From Pirellulales bacterium (GTDB lineage Bacteria > Planctomycetota > Planctomycetia > Pirellulales > PALSA-1355): a stretch of DNA of 64,000 nucleotides. The stretch spans positions 19,120 through 83,119 of the forward strand of contig DATJEN010000143.1 in NCBI GenBank assembly GCA_035496575.1, read 5' to 3'. The notes under the pieces were generated by a model. It saw only the letters and a list, made by a program, of their open reading frames with translations. It made no database searches and was not told the DNA's origin. Of the stretch, positions 1-28,082 are shown piece after piece. A program made the position numbers and the translations under genes. The first letter of the stretch is position 1; the number at the start of each line of letters is the position of its first letter.

Positions 1-1036
1 CGACCGACAAGGTCACATATCCAAATGCCCAGGCCATGCCCACCAGCAGGATCAGGTTGGCCAGGAGCGCGTGCCGCGCTCCGCCAAAACCGGCCACGAA
101 CAACAGCCCCACGCCCAACATCGACACGGCGCTAGCCCAGAACATCGAGCTTTGGCTCGAGCGCATCTCGTCGTTTTCCATGATCGGCAAACCGGTGAGG
201 CCAATCTTGGTGCCTGGATGGCGGGCTTGCGTGTGCGCTATCAACGAACGCAGCACGTCGGTGGCTTCGGTGTAGTGATTGAAGCCATCCTGCCCACGAG
301 CCAGCCGCAGCAGCACAAAGCCAAGCTGTCCTTGCTTGGTCAGCAAATAGTCGGAATTGAGCTCGCTCAGAATCGCGAACGAGGAAGGCATCTCGGGCCA
401 AGGTGATTGGTATCGCCGGCGCTGCCCGAGCGATTCGCTTAAGCTCGCGGCCAGGCGCTCGAGCTTCTCGCGTCCCGCTGCCGCGTCCGCGGGAGCGGCG
501 CCGCCTGAGCGCGCCGCGGCCCCGAGCTGCTGCGACAACCCGGCCGCCATGTTGCCGAGGTTCAACGGGGACCAATCGCCGCCCAGAATCGGGCCGAGCT
601 CGTTCAGGAAATGTTCGATTCCCTGCAGCTCTTCGGGCGAAACGTAATGCAGCCCTTTGGAGCGAATCTTGCCGAGATCGACCTCGTGCAGCACCGCATG
701 GAAAAGGCGGTCCTCGCGCGCAAGCGCGGTTGAGAGTTCTTGCAGGACAGGAACAACCTGTTCGCGTCCGGCGCCTTCGACGACGATCACAGCGTCATCT
801 TCGTCGCCAAACTCCTTGATGTACTCAATCCATAAGCGATTGTAGTTGCTCTTGGGATTGAGCAGATCCAGGCGGCTGGTCTGATAGCCCAGGCGCGTAG
901 CGGTCAGGTAGCAGGCGACGCCGGCCAGCGCGATGCAGATAGCAATCGTGGCGACTGGAAACGCCAAGATTGCGCGCGTCATCCAGACAAACGGCCGAGC
1001 TAAGAATAGCTGGTCGGCCGTAGAGGGTCCTTCCAT
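1..1036 (-). CDS. MMPL/RND-superfamily membrane transporter (HpnN-like), N-terminal part; gene continues beyond the left edge
   Basis: Absent from the ORF track because there is no stop in the window. My translation of the minus strand from the ATG at ~1036 is open to position 1: MEGPSTADQLFLARPFVWMTRAILAFPVATIAICIALAGVACYLTATRLGYQTSRLDLLNPKSNYNRLWIEYIKEFGDEDDAVIVVEG...GLTGLPIMENDEMRSSQSSMFWASAVSMLGVGLLFVAGFGG. TM1, a large extracytoplasmic loop and the start of the next TM bundle match MMPL/RND exporters. Confidence 0.7.
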   Translation of the reverse strand, partial: MEGPSTADQLFLARPFVWMTRAILAFPVATIAICIALAGVACYLTATRLGYQTSRLDLLNPKSNYNRLWIEYIKEFGDEDDAVIVVEGAGREQVVPVLQELSTALAREDRLFHAVLHEVDLGKIRSKGLHYVSPEELQGIEHFLNELGPILGGDWSPLNLGNMAAGLSQQLGAAARSGGAAPADAAAGREKLERLAASLSESLGQRRRYQSPWPEMPSSFAILSELNSDYLLTKQGQLGFVLLRLARGQDGFNHYTEATDVLRSLIAHTQARHPGTKIGLTGLPIMENDEMRSSQSSMFWASAVSMLGVGLLFVAGFGGARHALLANLILLVGMAWAFGYVTLSV

Positions 1037-8313: not shown

Positions 8314-8355
8314 GGGGTTCCGTTCGTTTAGCGCTCGCTGCGCGTCTAGACCCTA

Positions 8356-8361: not shown

Positions 8362-8413
8362 AGTGCGCGGGCAAAATCGCAGTAGGCGAGCTTTTGCAGC
8401 CCGCGCCGCGAAC

Positions 8414-8445
8414 GGGCCACCTCAGTTGGTCGTCTGAGATGGCCC
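8414..8445 (-). other. 12-bp stem hairpin (1 mismatch) between groEL and dnaJ
   Basis: GGGCCACCTCAG-ttggtcgt-CTGAGATGGCCC, about 30 nt downstream of the groEL stop. No U-tract follows, so it is a possible processing, attenuation or stability element rather than a classical terminator. Confidence 0.35.
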
Positions 8446-8472
8446 GCTTGCCTGGTGCGCGCGATAGTGGTT

Positions 8473-10092
8473 CTAGCGAATGCTGCCTTCCACGCGATTC
8501 TTGGCCTTATCGTCCTTGTCCAGGGTGGTGACCAGCGCCTCGGTCGTCAGCATCAAGCCCGCAATGCTGGCGGCATTGCTCAAGGCACTACGCACGACCT
8601 TGACCGGATCTATGATGCCGGCCTTCAGCATGTCGACATACTTGCCGGCGTTGGCGTCATAGCCCGTGTTGGTGGGCTTTTCGCGGACTTCGTCGACCAC
8701 CACCGAACCATCGATGCCGCAGTTGTCGGCGATCTGCTTCATGGGAGCGGTCAGAGCATGCAGCACGATGTCGACGCCGATCCGCTCGTCGCCTTTGCAC
8801 TGCGAGCGTACGCCCTCGACCGCCTCGGTGCACCGTAATAGCGCTACGCCGCCGCCGGGCAGAATGCCCTCTTCAACAGCCGCGCGTGTCGCATGCAGCG
8901 CGTCTTCGACTCGGGCTTTCTTCTGCTTCATGTCGCTCTCGGTGCCCGCGCCGACGGAGATGATCGCCACGCCGCCGGTCAGCTTCGCCAATCGCTCCTG
9001 AAACTTTTCTTTGTCGTAGTCGCTTTCGGTCGCGTCGATCTGATTGCGAATCTGCTGAATCCGATTTTGGATTTCGGCGGGCTTGCCAGCGCCCTTCACG
9101 ATGGTGGTCGCTTCTTTGTCGACGGTGATCTGCTTGGCGCGGCCCAGGTGCTCCAGTCCCAGGTTCTCGAGCTTAAGCCCCAGATCTTCGCTGATCAGCG
9201 TGCCCGCGGTCAGCACCGCGATGTCGCCCAGCATGGCCTTGCGGCGGTCGCCGAATCCAGGCGCCTTGACGGCGCACACGTTGAGCACGCCGCGCAGCTT
9301 GTTCACCACCAACGTCGTGAGCGCTTCGCCATCGACGTCCTCGGCAATGATCAAAAGCGGCTTGCCCGAGTGGGCGACCTTCTCGAGCAAAGGCACCAAC
9401 TCGCGGAGATTGCTCACTTTTTTCTCGTGGATCAAGATGAGCGCGTCCTCGAGCAAACAGTCCATCTCCGAAGGCCGGTTGATGAAATAGGGCGAGAGGT
9501 AGCCCTTGTCGAACTGCATGCCTTCGACGAGCTCTTTGGTCGTCTCGGTGGTCTTGCCCTCTTCGACGGTGATCACGCCGTCTTTGCCGACTTTCTCCAT
9601 GACGTCGGCCAGCAGCTCGCCAATGGTTGGATCGTTGTTGGCGCTGATGGCGCCGACCTGGGCAATCTCGTCCTTCTTCGAAACCGGCTTCGCCATGGAG
9701 TGCAGCTTTTCGATGGCAGCCTCCACGGCCTTCTCGATCCCACGACGCACGGCCATGGGGTTGCTGCCGGCGGCAATATTACGCGTGCCTTCCTTGAAGA
9801 TGGCCCGCGCCAGCACGGTCGCCGTGGTGGTTCCGTCGCCGGCGATGTCCGAAGTCTTGGAGGCGACTTCGTTGACGAGCTTCGCACCCATGTTCTCAAA
9901 ACGGTCTTCCAGCTCGACTTCCTTGCTGACCGTCACGCCGTCCTTCGTCACCGTGGGTCCGCCAAACGATTTGTCGATGATGACGTTGCGGCCAGTGGGA
10001 CCCATCGTGACGGCCACGGCGTCGGCCAGCTTTTCAACGCCACGCAGCATCTTGGCGCGGGCGGAATCCTCAAACAGTAATTGCTTTGCCAC
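8473..10092 (-). CDS. groEL: Chaperonin GroEL (copy without a GGM tail)
   Basis: 539 aa. It starts [37 protein letters not shown]…, a full-length Cpn60. The C-terminus ends …[16 protein letters not shown] with no Gly-Gly-Met repeats. Confidence 0.97.
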
Positions 10093-10171
10093 AGTGGCCT
10101 TCCTTCATGTTGAAGTTTGTATGCGAAATCGGCGGGAAACTTTTCGCCCCCGCCTGCAGCTCGATTTTTTT

Positions 10172-10468
10172 CTACAGGACCTTCGCCAGGATATCGCTTT
10201 CGCGCAGAATCTTGACATCCTTGCCGGACACCTCGATATCGGTGCCGGAGTATTTGCCGTAGATGACCGTGTCGCCCACGGCTACCGAGAGCGTGCCGCG
10301 ACTGCCGTTGTCGAGCAACTTGCCGGGACCGATCGACACCACTTTGCCGCGTTGGGGCTTTTCCTTGGCGGTATCCGGCAACACGATGCCGCCCGCGGTG
10401 CGTTCTTCAGCCTCTTGCGGCTCCACAACGACGCGATCATCCAGCGGTCGCAAACGTACGTTGGCCAT
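10172..10468 (-). CDS. groES: Co-chaperonin GroES
   Basis: 98 aa. [49 protein letters not shown]… is a canonical Cpn10. Confidence 0.97.
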
Positions 10469-10547
10469 TTCAGGGATCCTTCGTTCTTATGGGATGTGTT
10501 TCAGTTTGTATCGCAGTTAAGTAAATGTCTGTAAGTGTGCCGCAGGC

Positions 10548-12248
<1,701 letters not shown>

Positions 12249-15146: not shown

Positions 15147-15234
15147 GAGCATACTCAACGGGATAGATTTTCTCGGCTGGAAGCACACAGCTTCAGCCTG
15201 CTACTGTAACATTCGGAAATAAGATTACAAGAGA

Positions 15235-15248
15235 ATTTTCCGGAAAAT
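15235..15248. promoter_or_regulatory. Perfect 14-bp palindrome ATTTTCCGGAAAAT in the divergent PEP-CTERM/hom spacer
   Basis: Read directly. TTGACT follows immediately. It is a candidate operator. No binding protein is known. Confidence 0.3.
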
Positions 15249-15408
15249 ATTGACTCATCGTGACCGAGACCCGTTCGTGGCTGGCTGGCTCCAGCCATCC
15301 GGGGTAGGACGGCGAACCAGCAGCATTGAGAGCCGCTCCTCATTCTTGACGCTCAACTCCGCCCCAACCTACGATGGGCGATTCTCTTGTCTCACTGCAG
15401 TTCCCCGC

Positions 15409-16707
15409 ATGACTACCACGAAAGTCGCCCTGGTCGGCCTCGGTACGGTCGGCACCGGCGTAGCCCGCCTGCTGCTCGAAAAAGGCGATCGGATCGCCCG
15501 TCAGGCCGGCCAGCGGGTCGAACTAGCGGCCGTGGTGGTCAGTGACCCCGGAAAAACCCGGCAAGTCGCGGTTCCCGCCGGTCTCGTCGGAGACCAGCTC
15601 TCCAGGATCACGGCCGATCGGGACATCAAAATCGTGGCGGTGCTGGTCGGCGGCCTGGAACCGGCCCGCTCGATCGCTCTCGAATTGCTTGCGGCGGGAA
15701 AAGACCTGGTTACCGCCAACAAGGCCTTACTGGCAGCCCATGGAGCCGAGCTGTTCGATAGGGCCCGGGAGCTAGGGCGCTCGATTGCCTTCGAGGCGGC
15801 CGTGGCCGGCGGGATTCCGATCATCGCCAACATCAGCCAATGCCTGTCGGCCAACCAGATTCAGTCGATTCACGCGATTCTGAATGGCACTAGCAACTAC
15901 ATCCTGACGCAAATGGAAGCGCACGGCGCATCCTATGCCGACGCCGTCAAGGAAGCACAGCGGCTGGGCTATGCCGAGGCCGACCCTGCCATGGACGTCG
16001 ACGGCAGCGATGCGGCGCAAAAGCTGGCGATCCTGGCGCACCTGGCCTTCGGAGCGCGGGTGGACTGGACCGCCATCCCCCGGCAAGGCATCGATTTTTT
16101 GGAAACCGCCGACCTGCGCTACGCCAAGGAGTTAGGCTATCGCATCAAGCTGCTGGCCGTCGGCCAACTGACGCCCGCGGGGCTTGAGTTGCACGTGTCG
16201 CCGACCCTGGTCAAGCTCGCCAGCCCCTTGGCGGAAGTTCGCGGCGCGTACAACGCGATCAGCGTGGTGGGGGACGCGGTGGGGCGCGTGTTTTTCTCGG
16301 GGCTCGGCGCCGGCCAAATGCCGACCGCCTCGGCCGTCGTCTCCGACTTGATCGATACCGTGGTCGGCCGATCGGCCATCACGTTCCGCACGCTCAAGCT
16401 GTGGTCCGACCGAGCGGCCGCGGTGTCGATGCGCGACTATCGCGACGTAGCCGGACGTTATTACTTGCGATTCAGCGTCGAGGATCGGCCCAGCGTGTTG
16501 GCAGAGATTGCCGGGATGTTGGGGCAGCAAGCCATTTCGATCGCCTCGGTCATTCAGCATGAAGCCGAGGAGGAGGGCAGGGGCGTTGTTCCACTTGTCA
16601 TCATGACACACAATACGACCGAAGGAGCCATCTGCCGCGCCGTGCAGGCGATCGACGCGCGGCCGTTCATGCGCGGACGTAGCGTGCGGATGCGCGTGCG
16701 CGATTAG
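15409..16707 (+). CDS. hom: Homoserine dehydrogenase
   Basis: MTTTKVALVGLGTVGTGVARLL (NAD-binding fold), …NGTSNYILTQM…EADPAMDVDGSDAAQKLAILA…, and a C-terminal ACT-like region. I prefer the ATG at 15409 to the track start at 15250. Confidence 0.93.
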   Translation: MTTTKVALVGLGTVGTGVARLLLEKGDRIARQAGQRVELAAVVVSDPGKTRQVAVPAGLVGDQLSRITADRDIKIVAVLVGGLEPARSIALELLAAGKDLVTANKALLAAHGAELFDRARELGRSIAFEAAVAGGIPIIANISQCLSANQIQSIHAILNGTSNYILTQMEAHGASYADAVKEAQRLGYAEADPAMDVDGSDAAQKLAILAHLAFGARVDWTAIPRQGIDFLETADLRYAKELGYRIKLLAVGQLTPAGLELHVSPTLVKLASPLAEVRGAYNAISVVGDAVGRVFFSGLGAGQMPTASAVVSDLIDTVVGRSAITFRTLKLWSDRAAAVSMRDYRDVAGRYYLRFSVEDRPSVLAEIAGMLGQQAISIASVIQHEAEEEGRGVVPLVIMTHNTTEGAICRAVQAIDARPFMRGRSVRMRVRD

Positions 16708-16745
16708 GGCTTCCCCGTGCCGCGAAGCCTCGACCGCGAGTTGTC

Positions 16746-17957
16746 ATGATGAAATACGCTCTAGTCATTCCCGATGGCTGTGCCGACGAGCCGCAAGAGT
16801 CGTTGGCCGGCAAAACGCCTCTCGAGGCCGCCGCCATCCCCGCCATGGATGCCGTCGCAACCGCCGGCATCGTCGGCCGCGCAAACCATGTGCCGGCCGA
16901 TCTGCCAGCCGGATCGGACGTGGCTAACTTGAGCTTGTTGGGCTATGACCCTCATCAATACTTTACGGGGCGGGCGCCGCTCGAAGCCGCCGCTCAAGGC
17001 ATTAAGCTTGGCCCTTACGATTGCGCGATTCGCTGCAACCTGGTCACGATCGAAGACCAGGTGATGCGCGACTTCACGGCCGACCACATCTCAACGCAGG
17101 AAGCCACCGAACTGCTGGCCGCGCTGCAAACCCAAATCGGCCGACCGCAGCTCGAGTTCATTCCCGGCGTCAGCTATCGCAACTTGCTCATCTATCGCGG
17201 AACGGCCGAAAACCCGCCACCCTTCACGTCAGACACGCGTGCCACGCCGCCGCACGACCTGACCGACAACTCGGTACTGGACGATTATCCGCGCGGGCCC
17301 GGCAGCGACTTGCTCAACCAATTGATGAGCGAAAGCTTGGGCGTATTTGCCGGCCATCCGGCCAACCAGGCGCGTAAGAGCCAGGGCAAGCTTCCGGCGA
17401 CGAATGTTTGGCTGTGGGGATTGGGAAGAACCCCGGCCGTGCCGCCCTTTGGCGAGCTGTATGGCGTGCGCGGGGCGATGATCACGGCGGTCGACTTGTT
17501 GCGCGGCCTGGCCGGCCTCATCGGCTGGCAAACGATCGAAGTGCCTGGCGCGACCGGATACCTGGACACCGACTATGCGGCCAAGGGCCGCGCGGCGGTT
17601 GCGGCGCTTGCCGACACCGACTTCGTATGCGTCCACGTCGAAGCGCCGGACGAGGCATCGCACGAAGGAAACGCGGCCGCCAAGATCAAGGCGCTCGAAG
17701 AAATCGACCGCCACATTGTCGCGCCCCTGCGCGCGGCCTTGGAGGGCTACGGCGAGTTTCGCCTGATGGTCAGCCCCGACCATCCAACCCCGCTTCGCAC
17801 GAAAACGCACAGCCACGGCGCGGTTCCCTTTGCCATGTGTGGGCGCGGCATCACGCCGGATGGCTCGACGAGCTATTGCGAACCAGCGGCCAGCCGCTCG
17901 CAAGTGTCGTTTGACGAAGGCTGGAAGCTGATGCGGTTTTTTCTGGGGCGGGACTGA
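16746..17957 (+). CDS. Cofactor-independent phosphoglycerate-mutase-like protein; probably the 'proposed homoserine kinase' clade
   Basis: MKYALVIPDGCADEP…PAGSDVANLSLLGYDP…FVCVHVEAPDEASHEGN…SPDHPTP…HSHGAVPF shows the alkaline-phosphatase-superfamily apgM-type motifs. The gene sits between hom and lysC. Confidence 0.8.
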   Translation: MMKYALVIPDGCADEPQESLAGKTPLEAAAIPAMDAVATAGIVGRANHVPADLPAGSDVANLSLLGYDPHQYFTGRAPLEAAAQGIKLGPYDCAIRCNLVTIEDQVMRDFTADHISTQEATELLAALQTQIGRPQLEFIPGVSYRNLLIYRGTAENPPPFTSDTRATPPHDLTDNSVLDDYPRGPGSDLLNQLMSESLGVFAGHPANQARKSQGKLPATNVWLWGLGRTPAVPPFGELYGVRGAMITAVDLLRGLAGLIGWQTIEVPGATGYLDTDYAAKGRAAVAALADTDFVCVHVEAPDEASHEGNAAAKIKALEEIDRHIVAPLRAALEGYGEFRLMVSPDHPTPLRTKTHSHGAVPFAMCGRGITPDGSTSYCEPAASRSQVSFDEGWKLMRFFLGRD

Positions 17958-17997
17958 GTCCGGGTTTTTATATCGCAGCTTGAGGAACTCGAATCGC

Positions 17998-19770
17998 ATG
18001 CCATTGATCGTGCAAAAGTTTGGCGGCACCAGCGTCGCTGACAGCCAGAAAATTCTGGCAGCCGCCCGCAAAGCCGTCCGCGCGCAGCAGGAGGGCAGCC
18101 AGGTCGTGATGGTCGTCAGTGCCATGGGCCACAACACCGACCTGTTGATCGACCTGGCCAATCAGATTACCGACCACCCCCCCGCGCGCGAGATGGACAT
18201 GCTGCTGTCGACCGGCGAACAAGTGAGCGTGGCGCTGATGGCGATGGCCATCCATTCGCTGGGCCACGAGGCGATCAGCCTCACCGGCGCTCAGATCGGC
18301 ATCAAAACCGACAGCACGCATACCAAGGCCCGCATCCAGTCGATCTCCACCGATCGCATGCGGCGGGCGCTGGACGAAGGCAAGATCGTCATCGCCGCCG
18401 GCTTCCAAGGCATCGACGAAGATTTCAACATCACGACCCTGGGCCGCGGGGGCAGCGACACCACGGCGGTGGCGCTGGCCGCGGTGCTCGAAGCGGACGC
18501 CTGCGAGATCTTTACCGACGTGGATGGAGTCTACACGACCGATCCGCGCCTGCTGCCCGAAGCACGCCACATCCCGCGCGTCAGCTATGACGAGATGCTC
18601 GAGCTGGCGAGCTTGGGGGCGGGCGTGATGCACAATCGCTCGATCGAGTTCGCCAAGAAATTCGACGTGCCCATCCACGTGCGCTCGAGCTTCAGCGACA
18701 TGCCCGGCACGGTGATCACGGCCGAGCCGGAAGCCGCGGACCAAGCGGTGGGCGGAGCGGCATTGGCAAAGAATGAAGCCCGGGTGACGATTCTAGGCGT
18801 GCCGGACAAACCCGGGACTAGCCTGGCGATCTTTTCAAAAATCGCGGCGCAGGCGGTGTCGGTCGACATGATCGTGCAGAACGTGGGGGACGACGGGATC
18901 GCCGACGTGTCCTTCACGGTGTTGTCCGACGATTTGCGCGTGACCCTTAAGGCGGCCGAGGAAGCCTCGCGCGAGCTGGGCGCCGAAGGAGTCGCCCATG
19001 ATGACCTGGTGGCCAAAATCTCCGTGGTGGGACTGGGAATGGCCAGGCAGACCGGCGTGGCGCGGCGCATGTTTCGCGCGCTGGCCGAGGCCAACTGCAA
19101 CATCCTGATGATCACAACCAGCGAAATCAAAATATCGGTGCTGGTTGCCCGCAACGAAGCGGCTTCGGCGCTGCGATCGGTGCACCAGGCGTTTGGATTG
19201 GACCGTCCGCCGGCCGGCGAGCCCGGCCCGCAGCCACAGGCGCGGCGCGGCAAGCGCGACGCGGTGGCGGTGGTGGCGCGCCTGCAAAAGATGGAAGAGC
19301 TGACGATCGATGACATCGAGCTGGACGACACGCAGGCGCGACTGACCATCAGCAGCGTCGCGGACCAACCCGGCATTGCGGCGGCCGTGTTCGAAGCCGT
19401 CGCCGACGGCGGTATCTTCGTCGACATGATCGTGCAGAGCTATGGGCGCGAAGGCAAAGCCAAGCTCAGCTTCACGGTCCCGCAGCAGCAATATAGAGCC
19501 TGCCACGATTTGCTGACGGGACTCGTCGATCGGCTGCATTGCGGGCCGATCTCGGGCAGCCCGCGGGTCGCCAAGTTGTCGGTCTCCGGGATTGGGCTGC
19601 GCAGCCACACGCAGGTCGCCATTCGCACCTTCCGTTGCCTGGCCGAGTCGGGTATCAACGTCGACATGATCAGCACCAGCGAAGTGCGCGTGAATGTCGT
19701 CGTCGACGGCGCGCACGGCAAGCGCGCTTTGACGTGCTTGCAGAAGGTGTTCGCCGACGCTCGGCAATAA
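17998..19770 (+). CDS. lysC: Aspartate kinase with duplicated regulatory region (four ACT domains)
   Basis: MPLIVQKFGGTSVADS…GRGGSDTTAVALA…, followed by two successive ACT pairs (…VTILGVPDKPGTS…/…ISVVGLGM… and …LTISSVADQPGIA…/…LSVSGIGLRSH…). Confidence 0.93.
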   Translation: MPLIVQKFGGTSVADSQKILAAARKAVRAQQEGSQVVMVVSAMGHNTDLLIDLANQITDHPPAREMDMLLSTGEQVSVALMAMAIHSLGHEAISLTGAQIGIKTDSTHTKARIQSISTDRMRRALDEGKIVIAAGFQGIDEDFNITTLGRGGSDTTAVALAAVLEADACEIFTDVDGVYTTDPRLLPEARHIPRVSYDEMLELASLGAGVMHNRSIEFAKKFDVPIHVRSSFSDMPGTVITAEPEAADQAVGGAALAKNEARVTILGVPDKPGTSLAIFSKIAAQAVSVDMIVQNVGDDGIADVSFTVLSDDLRVTLKAAEEASRELGAEGVAHDDLVAKISVVGLGMARQTGVARRMFRALAEANCNILMITTSEIKISVLVARNEAASALRSVHQAFGLDRPPAGEPGPQPQARRGKRDAVAVVARLQKMEELTIDDIELDDTQARLTISSVADQPGIAAAVFEAVADGGIFVDMIVQSYGREGKAKLSFTVPQQQYRACHDLLTGLVDRLHCGPISGSPRVAKLSVSGIGLRSHTQVAIRTFRCLAESGINVDMISTSEVRVNVVVDGAHGKRALTCLQKVFADARQ

Positions 19771-19778
19771 GGTCGAAC

Positions 19779-21089
19779 CTAGTCCGGCTTACTCCGCGGC
19801 AGCGGGACGTCGCGGAAGACGAGCTCCACCTCGCGCCGAGCTCGCAAACGCGGATAGTGCAGCCGAATGGAAGCCGGCGCACTGTCGTGCGACTCGCCCA
19901 GGAACGTCAGTTTGAGCTGCACCCCGCGATCGGTCAGCGCATAGGCTTGCCCCTGGGCACGAAAGGGGTGGCCGGCGGCATCGATCAATTCGGCTTCGTA
20001 TTCCTGGAACAAAATCTCGTGCGGCTCGGGCAAGGCCATATCGCGAATGACGGTCAAGTTCAGCAGGTACTTGGACGGTGATTGCCGTTCCAGCGAATCG
20101 ACGCGGACCGCGAGGTCGTCCTGAGCGTACGTGCGGCCGGGTACGGGTGTTTCAATCGCCAGGGTGGTCGGCTTTCCCACGGCCACCAGGCTCCACTTGA
20201 TCGCGAGCACGTCGAGCGATTCGGCGGTGACGCTGATCGGATTGAGTTTCAAAGTTGCCGTGAACTGCCGCAGACCCTTGGTCGTCGCATTCCAAGCATT
20301 GCCGCCCGGCTGAGCCGACGACACGCGCACGCCATGGTTCGTCACCGCTTCGACAAGCTCCGGCTGCACGCAATAACCAACCAGCCGGAAGCGGTCCTCC
20401 CAGGTCAGTTGCAAGCCAAATTGAAAACTGTGGGCCAGCTCGGCCTTGCCGTCTTCGTACGAAAGGTCCTCCACGAACAGTCGCCGGGCCGACGTGATTT
20501 GCGCCCGCAAGGGTCCGCCATAGGCGCGCGGAAACTCACCGGGCTCGCCCGCACTCGCCACGACACCGGGAGTATGCATGTCGTAATGCGGACGCACGCG
20601 ATTGACACTTCGGCTGCACACGTCGTCGATGGCTTCCCAGTAGGTCCAGCCGCGATACTCCACGTCGAGCGGTTTATCGGAAAAATTGCCGTACGGATCA
20701 CCAACGTGGACGTGATTGCCGGCTTGATTGGCAAGCGCCAGCAGGATCTTCGAGGCCGGCTCGCCGCGCGAGACCAGATCGACGCGGCCAGGCGACCAGA
20801 TCTCTTCGAGCTCGATGCGTTCGAGCAATCGCGAAGCCCGCAGCCGCACCTCGACGTCCGAACTCTCGAGTGCTTGCTCCAGCTCCGCGCGCGTCTCGTT
20901 GCCCAATCGCAGCAACTGGTCTTCAGCCGCCTGGCGCTCGACAAAACTGCCGGAACCCAAGTCGCGCACCAGCCGGGCCACGCGCAGCTCGCCGCGCGCA
21001 GGCTCCTCGCCATGAGCCAAGGAACCTAGCACAAGTGACAGGAGAGTTAAGATCAGCGAACGACTAGCGGACGTAAATTTCCCATCCAT
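19779..21089 (-). CDS. Hypothetical secreted protein
   Basis: Signal peptide MDGKFTSASRSLILTLLSLVLGSLAHG, an N-terminal helical-repeat-like region, then a beta-rich remainder. No family recognised. The track ORF starts upstream at 21248. Confidence 0.65.
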   Translation of the reverse strand: MDGKFTSASRSLILTLLSLVLGSLAHGEEPARGELRVARLVRDLGSGSFVERQAAEDQLLRLGNETRAELEQALESSDVEVRLRASRLLERIELEEIWSPGRVDLVSRGEPASKILLALANQAGNHVHVGDPYGNFSDKPLDVEYRGWTYWEAIDDVCSRSVNRVRPHYDMHTPGVVASAGEPGEFPRAYGGPLRAQITSARRLFVEDLSYEDGKAELAHSFQFGLQLTWEDRFRLVGYCVQPELVEAVTNHGVRVSSAQPGGNAWNATTKGLRQFTATLKLNPISVTAESLDVLAIKWSLVAVGKPTTLAIETPVPGRTYAQDDLAVRVDSLERQSPSKYLLNLTVIRDMALPEPHEILFQEYEAELIDAAGHPFRAQGQAYALTDRGVQLKLTFLGESHDSAPASIRLHYPRLRARREVELVFRDVPLPRSKPD

Positions 21090-21276
21090 GGTGACGTCCT
21101 CCGCGGCAGGTGGCGAAACGCCTGGTTCGGGCTTCTTGCCTCGAAGGCGTCTCGCTGCGCACGATCGTAATCGGCGTGGTATCCTGGCCAGGCATGTGGC
21201 CTGACTTCGCCAGCGCAAGCGGTTGCCGCGCGGCGAAAAGCGAGGCAAACGTTAAAGAAGTCCGCTAGCTGGGTCA

Positions 21277-22275
21277 ATGTCGGCCTGGGAGCCAAGCACG
21301 TTGGGAACGAACGAAACTCGGCCACAGCTCGAATGTTTGAGCGTGGGAATCCTGGTCGCGGATCACTTGTGCGAGCCGATCCCCAGGGTGCCGGCCGCCG
21401 GAGAGCTCATCCTCTGCCCGAAGCTATCACTTTCGATTGGCGGCTGCGCCGCCAACGTTGCGATCGATTTAGCACGTTTGGGGGTGCGCGTAGGAGCGGT
21501 CGGATGCGTCGGACGAGATTCGTTCGGGCGGTTCATCGTCGATACGCTCAGCTCTGCCGACGTCGATGTCTCTAGCGTGCGGGCCATCGAAGACGCGGAG
21601 ACGTCGGGCACGCTGATCATCAATGTCGAAGGCGAGGATCGTCGCTTCATTCACTCGCCCGGCGCCAATGCTCGCCTGCGCGCGGCCGACATTCCGCTCG
21701 ACCTCGTTCAGAAGGCGAAGGTTCTGTACGTGGGTGGCTACCACCTGATGCCCGAGCTGGAGGGGGAGCCGCTGGCGTCGTTATTCCGCCAGGCGCGTGC
21801 CTGGGGAGTGAAGACCGTGCTCGACATTGTGATGCCCCCTTCGGCCGAGAGCTGGGAACCGCTGGCGGGCGTGCTCAGGGAGACCGACGTGTTTCTGCCG
21901 AACCAGGACGAGGCCGCCATGCTGACCGGCCTGGACGACCCTATCGAACAGGCCGGGCAGTTGGCCCAGAGCGTCGCGGGCGCGGTGGCTATCACGTGTG
22001 GCGAGAAGGGCATCGTGGTCGTATCCGGTGATCAACGCCTGCGAGCCGCGGCGCACAAGGTGGAGTATCGCGGCGGCACGGGCGCGGGCGATGCCTTCGA
22101 TGCCGGATTCATCGCGGGCATGCTGCAGGGGAAAGAGCTGCCCGATTGTCTGCGCTGGGCCAGCGCCGTTGGGGCTAGTTGCGTCCGCTCGATAAGCGCC
22201 ACGGATGCCGTCTTCACTCGCTCCGAAGCCATGGAATTCATGCGCGCCAACAAGCTGGAAATCAGCTCGTTCTAA
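21277..22275 (+). CDS. PfkB-family carbohydrate kinase
   Basis: …GILVADHL…GGCAANVAIDLARLG… and the C-terminal signature GGTGAGDAFDAGFIAG. Confidence 0.85.
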   Translation: MSAWEPSTLGTNETRPQLECLSVGILVADHLCEPIPRVPAAGELILCPKLSLSIGGCAANVAIDLARLGVRVGAVGCVGRDSFGRFIVDTLSSADVDVSSVRAIEDAETSGTLIINVEGEDRRFIHSPGANARLRAADIPLDLVQKAKVLYVGGYHLMPELEGEPLASLFRQARAWGVKTVLDIVMPPSAESWEPLAGVLRETDVFLPNQDEAAMLTGLDDPIEQAGQLAQSVAGAVAITCGEKGIVVVSGDQRLRAAAHKVEYRGGTGAGDAFDAGFIAGMLQGKELPDCLRWASAVGASCVRSISATDAVFTRSEAMEFMRANKLEISSF

Positions 22276-22372
22276 AAGCGGATCGAGCAGGTCGTGCCGC
22301 TTATACGGCATTTGACAATCGGCTTCCGAAATTCCGGTTTGACAACTCTCGAAGAGCGCGCCTCGCGGGCGT

Positions 22373-22981
22373 TTGAGCCTCCCGCAACGGGCCAAAGCGT
22401 GGCTTATGCTTGCCCGGAGACTCACTCCGGGGGCGGCGAACTGGCGCCTATCTGGATTTTGTCGGACACGCGTGGGAGACATACTCGTGATTTCGCGCAA
22501 ACGCCTGCTGATCGATCACAAGCTGCAACGAGCCATCTTGATTCGCAGCGCGATTTACTGGATTGCATGCCTGGTTGTTGCGAGCCTGATATTGGTGGCT
22601 TGGGATGCGTTCGAAGACCCCGGCCGCCCGGTCGTGGATTACTTTCGCTTGGACCGGCTGTGGGCGAACCATCAGATGGTGCTGGTTGGCGCCGTGCTCA
22701 TGCTGCCCTTCGTCCTGTTCGACGTGCTGCAAATCACGAATCGAGTTGCCGGTCCGATTTATCGCCTGCGGGCTTCGATCCGAGCTCTTGCGGCCGGCGA
22801 GCACGTGCAGCCGATTCAGTTTCGCGGGTCCGACTTTTGGCACGAAGTGGGGCAGGAATTCAATCAACTGATCGCGTATGCCGAGCGGCTGAAAGCGGAG
22901 CAGCCTGAGGAGGAGCCGGAGGAGACACTCGAGTTTGAACGCGTCGGGGATAGCACATTTGAGCTGCTGCACCGGCGCTAA
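22373..22981 (+). CDS. Hypothetical two-TM membrane protein with a HAMP-like linker
   Basis: Two TM segments (IYWIACLVVASLILVAW; MVLVGAVLMLPFVLF) are followed by NRVAGPIYRLRASIRALAAGE, which is HAMP-like. The tail is acidic. The true start is uncertain and may be an internal GTG near 22470. Confidence 0.55.
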   Translation: MSLPQRAKAWLMLARRLTPGAANWRLSGFCRTRVGDILVISRKRLLIDHKLQRAILIRSAIYWIACLVVASLILVAWDAFEDPGRPVVDYFRLDRLWANHQMVLVGAVLMLPFVLFDVLQITNRVAGPIYRLRASIRALAAGEHVQPIQFRGSDFWHEVGQEFNQLIAYAERLKAEQPEEEPEETLEFERVGDSTFELLHRR

Positions 22982-23014
22982 AATCGGCCTCGGTCGAGCT
23001 AGCCGCTCGGAAGG

Positions 23015-23236
23015 TTGACAGCCGTAAATTGGCGGCTTATGCTGCGAAAACAATAAGAATCTGTCGCTCGGGACCACCACCCATGTTCGTTCGCTCCATC
23101 TGGTCAAAGAACGTCGCCGCGATTGCGGTCGGCATCGTGATTATTAGGAAGGAGCGGCCGTAGGGGCGACTCGGTTTCGACCGTTTGACACGCAGCCCTG
23201 AGGCCTGAAATCGGCCGCAGGGCTTGTTTCGTTTCT
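23015..23236 (+). promoter_or_regulatory. Candidate promoter, leader-peptide and terminator attenuator upstream of cimA
   Basis: TTGACA-17 nt-TATGCT lies at 23015-23043. A 26-codon Ile/Val-rich ORF lies at 23083-23163. The stem AGCCCTGAGGCC-tgaaatc-GGCCGCAGGGCT lies at 23194-23224 and is followed by TGTTTCGTTTCT. Confidence 0.45.
23083..23163 (+). CDS. Putative leader peptide MFVRSIWSKNVAAIAVGIVIIRKERP
   Basis: My own translation; the ORF is below the track length cutoff. 9 of 26 residues are Ile or Val. It lies between a promoter-like motif and a terminator-like hairpin. Confidence 0.35.
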   Translation: MFVRSIWSKNVAAIAVGIVIIRKERP

Positions 23237-23285
23237 GGACCTACAATCTCGCGCAAAATCTTCAATCAACACACGAAAGCCAGTC

Positions 23286-24893
23286 ATGCGTCGCATCCAG
23301 ATCTACGACACCACGCTCCGCGATGGCAGTCAAGGCGAAGGGGTTAACTTCTCGCTGCAGGACAAGCTGCTCATCACCGAGCGGCTCGATAGCCTGGGCT
23401 TCGACTTCGTGGAAGGTGGGTTTCCGGCTTCCAACGAAAAAGACGCGCAGTACTTTCAGCGGGCCGCCGGCATGAAGCTCGCTTATGCAAAAGTCTGCGC
23501 CTTCGGCATGACACGCCGCCGCGGCACGCGCGTCGAGGAAGACCCGGGCATTCGCGCCTTGCTGAACGCGGGAACCGAGGTGATCACGCTGGTCGGCAAA
23601 ACCTCGAGCTTTCACGTGACCGAAGTGCTGCGCGTTTCGCTGGAAGAGAACCTGGCGATGATCGCCGACAGCGTGCGGCACCTAAGCGAAGCGGGCCGCA
23701 AGGTCATCTACGATGCCGAGCATTTCTTCGACGGCTGGAAGCTCAATCCCGAATATGCGCTATCGACTGTTCGCGCCGCCGCCCAGGCCGGAGCGATCAT
23801 GGTCGTGATGTGTGACACCAATGGCGGGACGATGCCCGAGGAAATCGCCGCCCTGACGCGCGAGGCGATCGCCGGGCTGGACGTGCCGGTCGGCATCCAT
23901 TGTCACAACGATTGCGAGTTGGCGGTGGCCAATTCGTTGGCCTCGCTCGACGCCGGCGCTGTGCAAGTGCAGGGCACGATCAATGGATTGGGCGAACGCT
24001 GCGGCAACGCCGACCTGATTTCGATCATCGCCAACCTGGCCGTCAAGAAGCAGGGCTACAGCGTGCTCGAACCATCGGCCATCGAGCACCTCACGGAGCT
24101 TTCGCGCTTTGTGTACGAGACCGCCAACTTTCGGCTACCGGCCAACCAACCGTTCGTCGGCCAAAGCGCTTTTGCGCACAAGGGCGGCATGCACGTGCAC
24201 GCCGTCGAGCGGGCTTCGGCAAGCTACGAGCATATCGATCCCTCGCTCGTGGGCAACGAGCGCCGCGTGCTCGTTAGCGAGCTATCAGGCCGCTCAAATA
24301 TCAAAGCGGCCCTGAGCGGGCACGATATCGCCCAAGACCCAGGCATGATGGACAAGATCCTGGCCCGCGTGGTCGAGCTGGAGAACCAGGGCTATCAATT
24401 CGAGGCGGCCCAGGGCTCGTTCGACCTGCTGGTGCGAAAATCGACCGCCAGCTACCGCCCTCATTTTGAACGACTCCATTTCCGCGTGAACGTCGAAACC
24501 GACTCCGCCGGCAACGTGGTGACCGAAGCCACCGTCAAGCTGCGAGTCGATGGCGTGATCCGGCACGAAGTCGCCGAGGGGGATGGCCCCGTCAACGCCC
24601 TGGATGCCGCCCTACGCAAGGCGTTGGCCGCGCATTTTCCGAACCTCGAGGAAATGCAGCTTGTCGATTACAAGGTGCGCGTCATCAATTCCGAGGCCGG
24701 CACGGCGGCGGGCGTGCGCGTGGTCATCGAAAGCCGCGATCAAAATGAGGTGTGGGGCACCGTGGGCGTAAGCGAAAACATCATCGAGGCCAGTTGGATT
24801 GCGCTGGTCGACAGCTTCGAATACAAGCTGTACAAGGATGAGGACGCGGCGACAGCACCGCTGAAAACCACCCCCGTCTCGGTCGGCACCTGA
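23286..24893 (+). CDS. cimA: Citramalate synthase (LeuA/CimA family, long form with a regulatory domain)
   Basis: MRRIQIYDTTLRDGSQGEGVNFSLQDKLLITERLDSLGFDFVEGGFPASN…HCHNDCELAVANSL…, plus a C-terminal LeuA-dimerisation-type domain. Confidence 0.85.
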   Translation: MRRIQIYDTTLRDGSQGEGVNFSLQDKLLITERLDSLGFDFVEGGFPASNEKDAQYFQRAAGMKLAYAKVCAFGMTRRRGTRVEEDPGIRALLNAGTEVITLVGKTSSFHVTEVLRVSLEENLAMIADSVRHLSEAGRKVIYDAEHFFDGWKLNPEYALSTVRAAAQAGAIMVVMCDTNGGTMPEEIAALTREAIAGLDVPVGIHCHNDCELAVANSLASLDAGAVQVQGTINGLGERCGNADLISIIANLAVKKQGYSVLEPSAIEHLTELSRFVYETANFRLPANQPFVGQSAFAHKGGMHVHAVERASASYEHIDPSLVGNERRVLVSELSGRSNIKAALSGHDIAQDPGMMDKILARVVELENQGYQFEAAQGSFDLLVRKSTASYRPHFERLHFRVNVETDSAGNVVTEATVKLRVDGVIRHEVAEGDGPVNALDAALRKALAAHFPNLEEMQLVDYKVRVINSEAGTAAGVRVVIESRDQNEVWGTVGVSENIIEASWIALVDSFEYKLYKDEDAATAPLKTTPVSVGT

Positions 24894-25004
24894 AAGTCTC
24901 GCCGCGAAGAATCGCCTGGATGAGGGACTCGATTCGCAGCTAGAATTCGCCGCGACCACCAGGCATTCCCACGGACTTCCGCCCCGAAGGACAAACGACC
25001 GGCC

Positions 25005-28000
25005 ATGGCAACCGAACTGGCAGCTCACGAGCTGCCCAAGCAATACGACCACAGCCAAGCGCAATCGCGCTGGTATCCCTTCTGGCTCGAGCGCGGCTAT
25101 TTCCACAGCGAGCCCGATCCCGATCGTCAGCCGTACACGATCGTGATCCCCCCGCCCAACGTGACCGGCGCTTTGCACCTGGGGCATGCTCTCAATAACT
25201 CGCTGCAAGATATTCTGATCCGCTGGCGGCGCATGCAGGGCTATAACGCCCTGTGGATGCCGGGAACCGACCACGCCGGCATCGCCACACAGGCCGTTGT
25301 CGAGCGTCGCCTGCTGGAGGAAGAAAAAAAAACCCGCCACGATCTTGGCCGCGCGGCGCTGGTCGAGCGGATTTGGCGCTGGAAAGACGAATACGAGACG
25401 CGCATTCTGAGCCAGCTTCAACAGCTTGGCTGTAGTTGCGACTGGCAGCGCACGCGGTTTACGCTCGACCCGCAATGCGTGCGCGCCGTGCGGCACACCT
25501 TTTTCGGAATGTTCAAATCCGGCCTGATCTATCGCGGCACCCGGTTAGTCAATTGGGACACCCTGTTGCAAACGGCCGTGAGCGACGACGAAGTGACTCA
25601 CGAAACCGTGGCCGGGCACTTCTGGCACCTGCGCTACCCGGTCATCGATCCCAAGCCGGGCGAGCCCGCATTTGTTTCCATCGCCACCACGCGGCCGGAA
25701 ACGATGCTAGGCGACACGGCCGTCGCGGTGCATCCCGATCCCGAGCAGGCCCTGGCTGCCGCCGAACGCGCGCTGGGCGAGAAGCTCGCCAGCGCTTCCG
25801 AAAAGGAGCGCGCCGGCCTGGAGCGCGAGCTCCAGCAGCTTGTCGAGCGCCGCCGCGCGTTGTTACCCCATTTGATTCAATTGCGCGACATGGCGCTCGC
25901 CGGCCGCAAGGTGCGCCTGCCGCTCGTGAATCGCGAGATCCCGCTCGTCGCCGACGTATGGGCCAAGCCCGAACTGGGCAGTGGTTGCGTGAAAATCACG
26001 CCTGCCCACGACCCGAACGACTATGAAGTCGCCAGGCGTCAGCAGTTGCCAATGATCAATATTCTCAATCCCGACGGCACGCTGAATGAGAACGCGGGAC
26101 CGTACGCAGCTTTGCGCATTGCCAAGGCGCGCGAGCGTGTGGTTGCGGACCTCGAAGCGCAAGGGTTAGTCGAGAGCGTGGAAGACCGCGAGATCGAGCT
26201 GGCTCATTCCGACCGCTCGAAGACGCCCATCGAACCGTATCTGGCCGACCAATGGTTCGTGAAGATGGAGGACCTCTCGCAATCGGCGATGGATGCCGTG
26301 ACCGATGGCCGCGTCAAGATCGTGCCAGGCCGCTACGCGCGCGGGTATCTGGATTGGTTGTCCGAGAAGCGTGACTGGCCGGTGAGCCGACAACTGTGGT
26401 GGGGACACCGGATTCCGATCTGGTACGCACCCACCGCCAGCGAGGCCGACCTGAAACGTGCTTTCGCCGGACGCGCGGACGTGGTGTGGCGCCGCGATGA
26501 CGAGAACGAAGGCTGGTTGATCTGCGCCCAGGAAGTCGACCTGTCGGAAGACGCGATACCAGGCCATAAGATCGAACAAGAAGTCGACGTGCTCGACACC
26601 TGGTTCAGCTCGGCGCTGTGGCCGCACTCGACGCTTGGCTGGCCCGAGCAAACACCCGAGCTCCAGTACTACTATCCGACCAGCACGCTAGTGACCAATC
26701 GCGACATCATGACACTGTGGGTCGCGCGGATGGTGCTCACCGGGCTGTTCAACGTAGGCGACGTGCCTTTCCGCGAAGTGTATATCCATCCCAAGATTCT
26801 CGACGGCTACGGCGAAGGCATGTCGAAGTCGAAGGGCAATGGCGTCGATCCGCTCGACGTAATCGAGAGCGTGGGCGCGGACTCGTTGCGGTTCAGCCTG
26901 GCGTATCTGACCACCGAAACGCAAGACGTGCGGATGCCGGTCGAGTTCGAGTGCCCGCACTGCCACGCGCATATCGAGCAAACGAAGAAGAATCGCGTGC
27001 TGCCGCGCATCGAGTGCAAGAAATGCGGACAGCCGTTCTCGACCCAATGGGCAACCAGGCCCGAGGACTTGGCGCTGGCGCGGGGAGCGGTGGTCAGCGA
27101 GCGGTTCGAGCTGGGGCGCAATTTCTGCAACAAGCTGTGGAATGCCGCGCGGTTTGCGATCATGAACCTGGAGGGCTACTCGCCTGGACTGGTCGTCCCG
27201 GATGAGCTGGCCATCGAAGATCGCTGGATGTTGAGCCGGCTGACCACGGTCACGACGCAATGCACCGCCGCGCTCGAAGAGTATCGTTTTGGCGACGCTG
27301 CGCGCGTACTGTACGACTTCGCTTGGAACGAGTTCTGCAGCTTTTACCTGGAGATGGCCAAGCCCCGGCTGCAGGATCCTGCCAGCCGTGCGAACGCGCA
27401 GCGGATTCTGGCCGGAGCGCTCGACGTGCTGCTGCGGCTATTGCATCCCATGATTCCGTTTCTGACGGAGGAAGTGTGGCAGCGATTGGGACAGCTTGCG
27501 CCGACGCGCGGCATCGACGAGCTGGAGCCGGCCGCCGAGAGCATCATGATCGCTCCCTGGCCGGAAGCCGATGAGGCGCGCGCCGACGAGGAAATCGAAT
27601 CGCGGTTTGCGCGTTTTCAGGAGCTGCTGGCCGGCTTGCGCGAAGTCCGCAGCCGCCAAAACATTCCACCCCGCACGCCCATACGCTTCAGCGTTCGCAG
27701 CGTTGACGCAACGCGAGACTTGCTGGCTCCCTTGACACCCTACTTCGACGCCATGGCCGGCGCCCACGCCACCGCCTGGGGTCCGCAGGTCGCTGCACCA
27801 CCGGCAGCCGCGAGTTTTGTGGCGGCGGGCGCAGAGGTGTTCGTCGATCTGGCAGGCCACATCGACTTGGAAGCCGAAGTCGCCCGCAAGAAGAAAGAGC
27901 TCGAGCGGCTCGCAAGCGCCATCGCGGGCAAACAACGACAACTGGCGAACGAGAACTTCGTGTCGCGAGCGCCCGCCGCGGTGATCGAAAAGGAGCGCGC

Positions 28001-28082
28001 CGCGCTAGCGGAGCTCGAGCAACTGCGCGCGACCACCGAAGCCGCGCTAGCCGCCGCCGAGGGATCGCCAGGCGCTAAATAG
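25005..28082 (+). CDS. valS: Valine--tRNA ligase
   Basis: 1025 aa with PPPNVTGALHLGHA (HIGH), an editing domain, GMSKSKGN (KMSKS) and a C-terminal coiled coil. A CxxC…CxxC insertion follows the KMSKS region. Confidence 0.97.
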   Translation: MATELAAHELPKQYDHSQAQSRWYPFWLERGYFHSEPDPDRQPYTIVIPPPNVTGALHLGHALNNSLQDILIRWRRMQGYNALWMPGTDHAGIATQAVVERRLLEEEKKTRHDLGRAALVERIWRWKDEYETRILSQLQQLGCSCDWQRTRFTLDPQCVRAVRHTFFGMFKSGLIYRGTRLVNWDTLLQTAVSDDEVTHETVAGHFWHLRYPVIDPKPGEPAFVSIATTRPETMLGDTAVAVHPDPEQALAAAERALGEKLASASEKERAGLERELQQLVERRRALLPHLIQLRDMALAGRKVRLPLVNREIPLVADVWAKPELGSGCVKITPAHDPNDYEVARRQQLPMINILNPDGTLNENAGPYAALRIAKARERVVADLEAQGLVESVEDREIELAHSDRSKTPIEPYLADQWFVKMEDLSQSAMDAVTDGRVKIVPGRYARGYLDWLSEKRDWPVSRQLWWGHRIPIWYAPTASEADLKRAFAGRADVVWRRDDENEGWLICAQEVDLSEDAIPGHKIEQEVDVLDTWFSSALWPHSTLGWPEQTPELQYYYPTSTLVTNRDIMTLWVARMVLTGLFNVGDVPFREVYIHPKILDGYGEGMSKSKGNGVDPLDVIESVGADSLRFSLAYLTTETQDVRMPVEFECPHCHAHIEQTKKNRVLPRIECKKCGQPFSTQWATRPEDLALARGAVVSERFELGRNFCNKLWNAARFAIMNLEGYSPGLVVPDELAIEDRWMLSRLTTVTTQCTAALEEYRFGDAARVLYDFAWNEFCSFYLEMAKPRLQDPASRANAQRILAGALDVLLRLLHPMIPFLTEEVWQRLGQLAPTRGIDELEPAAESIMIAPWPEADEARADEEIESRFARFQELLAGLREVRSRQNIPPRTPIRFSVRSVDATRDLLAPLTPYFDAMAGAHATAWGPQVAAPPAAASFVAAGAEVFVDLAGHIDLEAEVARKKKELERLASAIAGKQRQLANENFVSRAPAAVIEKERAALAELEQLRATTEAALAAAEGSPGAK

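Follow-up and report, generated by a model that had tools for sequence, protein, structure and literature searches.

A candidate leader-peptide transcription attenuator in front of citramalate synthase in Pirellulales and related Planctomycetota

Does the DNA in front of cimA in a Pirellulales bacterium hold a device by which a translating ribosome decides whether that gene is transcribed, and if so, which part of the device is the sensor? The question concerns the leader of the (R)-citramalate synthase gene in contig DATJEN010000143.1 (assembly GCA_035496575.1); the window is the whole stretch of 64,000 nucleotides (nt) of this contig that was analysed, and coordinates below are positions within it. 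An earlier note had pointed here to a candidate attenuator, composed of a promoter, a short open reading frame (ORF) rich in isoleucine and valine codons, a hairpin with a U-rich run, and a segment across the ORF's stop codon that could serve as antiterminator. The present analysis supports this proposal. The leader is very probably an attenuator of transcription of the ribosome-mediated (leader-peptide) class; it would respond to charged tRNA-Ile and, probably, to charged tRNA-Val, and its isoleucine run most likely lets citramalate synthase be made only when isoleucine is low. The following elements were read directly from the sequence.

23015-23043, + strand: sigma-70-type promoter, with the -35 element TTGACA at 23015-23020, a 17-nt spacer and the -10 element TATGCT at 23038-23043
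23083-23163, + strand: leader ORF, from ATG at 23083 to TAG at 23161-23163, whose 26 codons encode MFVRSIWSKNVAAIAVGIVIIRKERP
23113-23145, + strand: putative regulatory codon stretch, V11 to I21 of the leader (V-A-A-I-A-V-G-I-V-I-I)
23134-23145, + strand: core of this stretch, ATC GTG ATT ATT
23156-23168, + strand: box, the 5' strand of the antiterminator, GGCC-G-UAGGGGCG, enclosing the leader stop codon (23161-23163)
23172-23183, + strand: small hairpin CGGU-UUCG-ACCG, seen in the minimum free energy (MFE) fold of the nascent segment and nested in the antiterminator loop
23194-23224, + strand: terminator hairpin, AGCCCTG-A-GGCC / TGAAATC / GGCC-G-CAGGGCT, with 7+4 base pairs and one A.G mismatch
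23194-23205, 23206-23212 and 23213-23224, + strand: 5' arm (common to the antiterminator), loop and 3' arm of the terminator
23225-23236, + strand: U-rich tract TGTTTCGTTTCT (also written UGUUUCGUUUCU), interrupted
23286-24893, + strand: cimA, the putatively regulated gene (TIGR00977 equivalog, 671.5 bits against a cut-off of 450), whose product has HMGL-like and LeuA_dimer domains

All four elements named in the earlier note are therefore present, the stem with its mismatch and the U-rich run with an interruption. The promoter matches the consensus at 10 of 12 positions and is the sole match of that kind within 21000-26000; transcription would start near 23050, about 7 nt past the -10 element, and the leader ATG lies 40 nt downstream of the -10 end. 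Nine of the 26 leader residues are isoleucine or valine. The box resembles the 3' arm of the terminator, and GGCCGTAGGGG (23156-23166), which straddles the leader stop codon, is complementary to the 5' arm of the hairpin. Taken alone, the window is only suggestive, and the case that the arrangement goes beyond chance rests on the comparison with 60 other loci.

Conservation of the leader with cimA

A search for relatives of CimA, taking one genome per species, gave 80 loci, nearly all from Pirellulales or other Planctomycetota, the best of them with 82% amino-acid identity. Inspection by eye and with a regular expression found in most of the 80 an ATG-started short ORF 5' of cimA, ending in [V/I]-I-I-(I)-x3-5-stop; 31-38 nt past the short ORF, the relatives carry CCCUGAGGCC-loop-GGCCUCAGGG-U6-9. 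From an alignment (A1) of 40 leader segments we built a covariance model (R1) with the terminator as its sole structure and searched it against the window and the 80 loci, accepting hits with E <= 1e-4. It matched 61 of these 81 sequences, with one copy per locus, always on the strand of cimA, and in 59 loci the match lies directly 5' of cimA. A small Ile/Val-rich ORF with a hairpin thus recurs upstream of cimA orthologues, as the earlier note had anticipated. The carriers belong to Pirellulales, Planctomycetales and unclassified Planctomycetota; cultured strains among them are Lacipirellula limnantheis I41 (locus L075, 99 bits) and Bremerella cremea JCM 17758 (L040). Several lower-scoring loci hold recognisable variants, among them a weaker one with an IAII leader and a hairpin in a Gemmatales metagenome-assembled genome (MAG; locus L049). 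The match in the window spans 23110-23235 (80.4 bits, E 2e-19). A second copy of the element was not found in the 64 kb, where the only other R1 match, at 62649-62760, is at noise level (E = 0.61).

The promoter is conserved as well. Of 59 related loci, 54 have the pattern TTGACN-16..18-TAnnnT 5' of the leader, at a background density of 0.024 matches per 280 nt, and the distance from its -10 end to the leader ATG is usually 25-45 nt. The upstream neighbour of the leader in the window, a + strand gene for a protein of 202 amino acids that ends at 22981, has a homologue in only 1 other of the 80 loci, and the PfkB kinase gene that precedes it is limited to the four closest loci. Since the promoter is conserved and the upstream gene is not, the hairpin must be more than that gene's 3' end, a point that the earlier note had left as a possible refutation. 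The sequence of the box, GGCC-nTAR-GGG, is also kept across relatives. Judged by this comparison, the ordered elements form one conserved unit that belongs to cimA, not to the upstream gene.

The motifs of the arm (CCCTGAGGCC) and the box (GGCCKTARGGG) occur exactly once each in the 64-kb window, and when one mismatch is allowed their match counts are at chance level. The possibility of a dispersed repeat, or of a generic terminator sequence of this genome, was rejected because each motif occurs only once.

The RNA motif alone was also used for a search that does not start from CimA: metagenome contigs were scanned with GGCCNTARGGG-N18-48-CCCTGAGGCC, giving at least 120 loci. R1 matches 40 of the first 80, and 36 of these 40 have a gene of the CimA/LeuA family downstream on the same strand (34 cimA, 2 leuA). 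In three of the other four there is too little contig downstream, and the fourth (L089) has a membrane-protein gene first, as has L030 among the CimA relatives. About 12 more leader loci are evident by eye among the remaining 40; around half of the 120 pattern matches are chance ones, without a terminator after the arm. One metagenome contig of 1764 nt (L170) is 100% identical to 22175-23938 of the window, covering the leader and the start of cimA, which indicates that the same organism or a very close strain was sampled independently.

Competing folds, leader codons and a leucine counterpart

How could such a leader switch? The terminator is the consensus helix returned by RNAalifold. Over the 61 sequences 95.2% of its cells are paired, compensatory changes occur in 7 of its 10 pairs, and its covariation score is 0.366 versus 0.241 for shuffled alignments, none of 500 shuffles reaching 0.366. 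Its 5' arm is far more conserved than its 3' arm, which tolerates G.U pairs; this is what would be expected if the 5' arm must pair with two partners. The other partner is the box. In the window, the box (23156-23168) pairs with 23191-23205, so that antiterminator (-22.5 kcal/mol) and terminator (-21.9 kcal/mol) compete for 23196-23205. Two mutually exclusive folds of nearly equal energy, as the earlier note had suspected, are thus found, and the mean energies over 60 sequences are -18.7 and -20.5 kcal/mol, respectively. When the nascent segment, from just 5' of the box through the end of the 5' arm, was folded by unconstrained MFE, at least 6 nt of the arm paired with the box in 56 of 60 sequences, with a mean z of -2.2. 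The closest relatives also have a hairpin at the position that matches 23172-23183 (for example GAACCGGU..ACCGAUUC).

The pairing of box and arm is preserved through sequence change. In a fixed register the antiterminator is 79% paired, versus 54% and 61% when slid by one column; 5 of its 8 pairs carry compensatory changes, and its covariation score is equalled by none of 500 shuffles. The fixed-register count weakens the second antiterminator helix, given a 1-nt difference of register between subgroups, and for this reason folding sequence by sequence and duplex energies of cognate and non-cognate partners were used. Compensatory box:arm pairs are GGCU:AGCC (loci L062 and L029), AGCU:AGCU (L065), GGCG:CGCC (L040 and L059), GACC:GGUC (L027 and L058) and CCUGAGG:CCUCAGG (L073 and L080). 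Duplexes of a box with the arm of its own locus average -18.2 kcal/mol and those with a non-cognate arm -15.7 kcal/mol (Wilcoxon p = 4e-8), and for the 23 variant arms the values are -16.6 and -12.9 kcal/mol (p = 3.5e-5). The segment across the stop codon, to which the earlier note had assigned the antiterminator role, therefore both complements and co-varies with the 5' arm of the terminator.

Is the ORF that runs into the box really a coding sequence? In 56 of the 59 full-length related matches it ends at a fixed place relative to the box, with the stop in most cases 5 nt into it (inside GGCC-n-TAR-GGG) and in about 14 cases 4-9 nt before it. The N-terminal part varies freely in length and sequence. 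Leader length runs between 12 and 85 residues. Conservation is confined to the Ile/Val run and to the last few residues, whose identity is imposed by the RNA box. Among the final 15 codons of 59 leaders, Ile makes up 21.6%, versus 5.0% in CimA (4.3-fold enriched), Val 16.0% versus 9.4%, and Leu 3.7% versus 8.5%. The doublet 'II' is present in 43 of 59 leaders and 'III' in 18, when composition alone would give 'II' in 3.5% of 15-residue tails. The choice among synonymous codons is unusual, too: ATT accounts for 77% of leader Ile codons but for 23% of those in cimA, where ATC makes up 75%, and GTA is enriched among leader Val codons (21% versus 5%). The use of rare codons is a known trait of leader peptides, as in E. 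coli leuL. Among the leaders compared, Ile codons interchange synonymously among ATT, ATC and ATA.

In 34 of 57 leaders the last Ile codon precedes the box by 13 nt (19 cases) or 16 nt (15 cases), the two peaks of the distribution; the value for the window is 13 nt. Set against published footprint sizes, this spacing would match the footprint of a ribosome, such that a ribosome with an Ile codon in its A site would leave the box just uncovered and one at the stop codon would cover it. By these sequence measures the leader looks like an ORF that is translated and carries regulatory codons. In addition, 24 of 59 cimA leaders have a GGAG resembling a Shine-Dalgarno sequence in the 16 nt that precede the box (background 5%), its commonest place being 8 nt from the box and 13 nt from the stop codon; the corresponding window sequence is AGGAAGGAGC at 23146-23155. 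The first G of this GGAG is the third position of otherwise differing codons (CAG, CGG, CCG, ACG, ATG, GTG), so that GGAG(G) is conserved at synonymous sites in cimA leaders. It is missing from the leuA leaders described below. Most leaders end in Pro-stop, and one may speculate that GGAG and Pro-stop together hold the terminating ribosome on the box.

The strongest available argument on the nature of the sensor comes from a paralogous gene, leuA, which encodes 2-isopropylmalate synthase and lies downstream of three of the metagenome motif matches:

L134, 2442-2590: leuA leader, leucine-rich, MLLAARLPLLLLALRRTRP followed by the stop codon
L135, 522-630, - strand: leuA leader, leucine-rich, VTRICLLPLLFLALTGRRP followed by the stop codon
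L098, 2-84: leuA leader, cut off by the contig end

Eight further Pirellulales leuA loci (L201-L208) were fetched through a protein search. All eight have the element, about 100-380 nt upstream of position 1501, with a Leu-rich short ORF that ends in or at the box and then a terminator of the same kind; example leaders, each followed by a stop codon, are MHQNLLLPLLLLLLADDRP, MALLNLLPYLLLLLVLGRP and MLPSQFLLPLLLLLPKP. The same design of box and terminator is found in all ten leuA loci with a complete leader, and R1, although built from cimA leaders only, matches all eleven leuA loci (E 1e-13 to 2e-3). In the last 15 codons of the leuA leaders Leu accounts for 43.3%, Ile and Val for 1.3% each. 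When leuA and cimA leaders are compared for Ile versus Leu, the Fisher p is 3e-37, which is indicative only, given the kinship of the sequences, but the contrast is categorical. Since the codon run is switched to match the product of the enzyme on one and the same RNA design, the codons are presumably the sensor. One box/terminator module may thus have been reused for the two paralogues, with specificity set by the codon run only, Ile/Val for cimA and Leu for leuA.

Proposed mechanism and rival explanations

The defining structural features of an attenuator that were tested appear to be in place, apart from a conserved 1:2 helix. There is a leader ORF with start and stop codons behind a promoter, and it contains a cluster of codons of the pathway's amino acids; an intrinsic terminator lies before the structural gene, an antiterminator shares the 5' arm of that terminator, and the spacing suits masking of the box by a ribosome at the stop codon versus exposure of the box when the ribosome is stalled. 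The mechanism would then run as follows. Transcription would start about 7 nt past the -10 element, and a ribosome would translate the 26-codon leader while RNA polymerase moves on. When isoleucine is plentiful, the ribosome would reach the stop codon at 23161-23163 and cover the box at 23156-23168; the 5' arm (23194-23205) would then pair with the 3' arm (23213-23224), and transcription would end prematurely in the cell, within the U-tract and short of cimA. Under a shortage of charged tRNA-Ile, the ribosome would stall at ATC-GTG-ATT-ATT, 13-22 nt before the box, and the exposed box would pair with the 5' arm as soon as the arm is made and block the terminator. The antiterminated polymerase would enter cimA, and possibly the following gene, valS, and the flux through the citramalate route to isoleucine would rise. 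Expression would in this way respond to the supply of isoleucine and valine, and the change from Ile to Leu codons between cimA and leuA leaders lends indirect support to a read-through that would rise when the cognate charged tRNA is limiting.

Several observations weigh against this interpretation. The element is missing from about 15-19 of the 80 cimA loci, and the compared sequences are related by descent, so that the p-values overstate their independence. In the window itself, 0.9 promoter matches of the quality seen are expected by chance in 21000-26000, a Shine-Dalgarno sequence is not evident 5' of the leader ATG, and the MFE of the whole leader is unremarkable (z = -0.67). The U-tract is interrupted, with 5 U in its first 8 nt, and the terminator is perhaps leaky; relatives carry T6-T9 at this position, and the tract is the weakest part of the window's terminator, a point absent from the earlier note. 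A simple terminator scan did not call the window hairpin, owing to the A.G mismatch and the interrupted tract. RNAalifold, run on the alignment from the covariance model, did not recover the antiterminator as a consensus, which is explained by the 1-nt shift of the box register between subgroups together with the internal loop. Nor did RNAalifold give a positionally conserved 1:2 helix of the anti-antiterminator or pause type; in folds of single sequences the box pairs with upstream leader sequence in 23 of 31, with a partner that is not conserved. An untranslated leader might therefore default to read-through.

What else could the region be? One alternative takes the hairpin for nothing more than the intrinsic terminator of the upstream 202-residue gene, the small ORF and the promoter-like motif being there by chance. 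It does lie downstream of that + strand gene, a separate terminator is not evident between 22981 and 23015, and about one promoter-like match per 5 kb is to be expected; but the hairpin begins 213 nt past the gene's stop codon, the gene has a homologue in 1 of 80 loci whereas leader and hairpin stay with cimA, a promoter stands between the gene and the leader in 54 of 59 loci, and a metagenome search with the motif alone lands before cimA or leuA, all of which makes this explanation extremely improbable. An RNA switch that works without translation, in which a protein, a tRNA or a small molecule picks the hairpin and the 'ORF' is an accident of the RNA motif GUGAUUAUU, would suit two alternative hairpins equally well, since these fit any type of sensor, and it would account for the unseen Shine-Dalgarno sequence before the leader ATG and for the conservation of GGAG and other nucleotides at synonymous sites. 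Against it, no Rfam family matches the leader even at E up to 10, T-box and all riboswitches included, and upstream of the box RNAalifold yields no conserved helix from which an aptamer might be built. Moreover, the sequence upstream of the Ile cluster diverges freely without loss of the reading frame, the start codon or the position of the stop, Ile codons are exchanged for their synonyms, and precisely the codon identity is altered, to Leu, in the leuA version. We consider such a switch very unlikely.

The small ORF might instead encode a functional hydrophobic micro-protein, for example a membrane peptide, with the hairpin just ending its transcript. The peptide is indeed hydrophobic and the ORF is conserved as an ORF, yet it is hard to see a protein of 12 to 85 residues of which only the Ile/Val run and the box-dictated end are kept, whose codon choice opposes the preference of the genome, whose paralogous counterpart is a Leu run with the same RNA box, and which always sits directly 5' of a biosynthetic gene for the matching amino acid; we give this reading hardly any credence. 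Finally, the leader could act after transcription or through Rho, on cimA translation, messenger RNA stability or Rho shielding. The imperfect U-tract of the window speaks for such an action, and leader genes near structural genes have been proposed to aid re-initiation, Planctomycetes included (PMC4833913). However, 122 nt separate the leader stop from the cimA ATG, far more than the re-initiation distance of 10-11 nt (PMC4833913), and relatives have canonical GC-rich stems followed by T6-T9. Between the end of the hairpin and the cimA ATG there are 61 nt in the window, and in relatives from some tens to a few hundred nt (up to about 500), so that the hairpin cannot mask the start of cimA. 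This last explanation is most unlikely. A ribosome-mediated attenuator accordingly remains the preferred reading of the locus.

Neighbouring genes and comparison with known systems

The gene behind cimA, which did not figure in the earlier note, adds a further possible role for the valine codons.

25005-28082, + strand: valS, valine-tRNA ligase (NF004349, 1051.9 bits)

In 63 of the 80 loci valS is the next gene after cimA, with spacers that range from overlapping to about 300 nt (lengths extrapolated from tblastn alignments). The spacer in the window (24894-25004) is 111 nt long, and the terminator scan found no + strand terminator in it. It contains a -10-like TAGAAT at 24941-24946, which recurs as TAnAAT in the loci L001-L004, and valS may therefore have its own promoter; a terminator-like hairpin occurs in the cimA-valS spacer of at least one relative (L006). 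It may be that valS is both co-transcribed with cimA and transcribed independently, and it is possibly the second gene of the attenuated unit. Since valS is conserved behind cimA, the Val codons of the leader could report the charging of tRNA-Val for ValRS, and the cimA leader may thus be a dual sensor, with Ile codons for the supply from CimA and Val codons for tRNA-Val and a co-transcribed ValRS. The nearly universal Pro-stop, with GGAG 13 nt before the stop, may likewise be a built-in parking site that replaces the 1:2 hairpin.

At three loci another gene sits between the Ile leader and cimA (L030, 753-2993; L061, 1032-2993; L089, downstream of position 741), and it would fall under the same attenuator; it encodes a membrane protein of 650-750 amino acids with C-terminal TPR repeats. 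Between the terminator and the cimA ATG, five loci (L006, L010, L022, L025 and L026) have short tandem repeats such as CCCCATT, GGGTTCA, AACTCCT, GCAAATT and similar ones, and the window has none of these there. The window also holds a cluster for the threonine branch at 15410-19770 (+ strand), with homoserine dehydrogenase (ATG at 15410), a protein resembling cofactor-independent phosphoglycerate mutase (16746-17957, + strand), which we take to be possibly an alternative homoserine kinase, and aspartate kinase (17980-19770, + strand) with several ACT-domain matches. The 220 nt 5' of this cluster (15189-15409) show no Thr/Ile leader ORF and no terminator; a promoter-like site lies about 25 nt before the ATG of homoserine dehydrogenase. 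Elsewhere in the window, two GroEL-family chaperonin genes (8473-10092 and 10554-12248, - strand) adjoin dnaJ (7186-8313) in a cluster at 7186-12248, and a type IB topoisomerase gene at 43743-44924 (+ strand) combines a eukaryotic-type catalytic core with a bacterial TopIB N-terminal domain. ARAGORN found no tRNA genes in the window.

The cimA leader is outside every curated Rfam family: a search of 22000-24500 with E up to 10 gave no match overlapping the + strand leader, and no family reached its gathering threshold anywhere in the whole window. Leader-peptide attenuation in Planctomycetes or upstream of cimA was not found in the searchable literature, in agreement with the earlier note, whose author knew of no such description for this type of genome; an earlier in-silico prediction is possible. 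As far as this literature search reached, this would be the first such control found for cimA and for the phylum. By sequence, the leaders appear to be a new family of the classic ribosome-mediated attenuator class, with two codon-specific branches; its members are about 60 genomic cimA loci, some 50 further ones from metagenomes and the leuA branch, which the earlier note had not included. In genome annotation their short ORFs should be recorded as leaders, not passed over or entered as hypothetical proteins, and the covariance model could seed an Rfam family. According to a survey of 2010, leader peptides were at that time known from Proteobacteria and Actinobacteria only; the survey itself contributed one case from Firmicutes (PMC2965389).

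The spread of the family also bears on the cell biology of the phylum. An old claim, attributed to Gottshall et al. 2014 where it is cited in PMC6554331, holds that transcription and translation are separated in Planctomycetes. An attenuator of this kind works only with a ribosome close behind RNA polymerase, and its conservation therefore argues for coupling in Planctomycetota; its presence in Pirellulales and Planctomycetales, and more weakly in one Gemmatales MAG, would, if true, be genetic evidence for transcription-translation coupling. That all of these ideas hold jointly, namely the modular attenuator, the dual sensor, parking at Pro-stop and GGAG, and the spread as evidence for coupling, seems to us rather doubtful.

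How does the family compare with what is known? The classic ribosome-mediated attenuators are those of the ilv, leu, trp, his, thr and pheA operons. With ilvL and leuL of E. coli the planctomycete leaders share the order of promoter, ORF with a codon run, stop codon by the antiterminator strand, terminator, U-tract and biosynthetic gene; with ilvL of ilvGMEDA they share more than one branched-chain amino acid in the leader, and with leuL the rare synonymous codons. They differ from both in phylum and in lacking any similarity of sequence or Rfam model, in their target, cimA, a gene that E. coli lacks, in the conserved 1:2 pause hairpin, of which none was found, and in the position of the stop codon inside the internal loop of the antiterminator helix. 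In E. coli, too, the pheM leader, rich in the cognate amino acid, controls the aminoacyl-tRNA synthetase genes pheST, which parallels the Val codons before the cimA-valS pair; unlike pheST, valS would at most come second, after a biosynthetic gene, and may have a promoter of its own. The T-box leaders of ilv and leu genes in Firmicutes likewise sense tRNA charging through a choice between terminator and antiterminator. However, the planctomycete leader has no match to a T-box model, no specifier loop and no T-box sequence, and its sensing would go through a translating ribosome.

A parallel outside Proteobacteria lies in Actinobacteria, where leader attenuators of leuA and ilvB were predicted by comparative genomics (Seliverstov et al. 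2005, PMC1262725) and where ilvBNC of Corynebacterium has a leader attenuator (PMC11857589, PMC10272879). There, as here, leader-peptide attenuators before a gene of the LeuA family were first predicted from the comparison of genomes. The sequences are unrelated to those of the planctomycete family, which differs in placing one RNA design before two paralogues, cimA (Ile/Val) and leuA (Leu). This pair amounts to a natural codon swap on a single RNA design, and it would make a clean system for studying how the identity of the codons determines the specificity of an attenuator.

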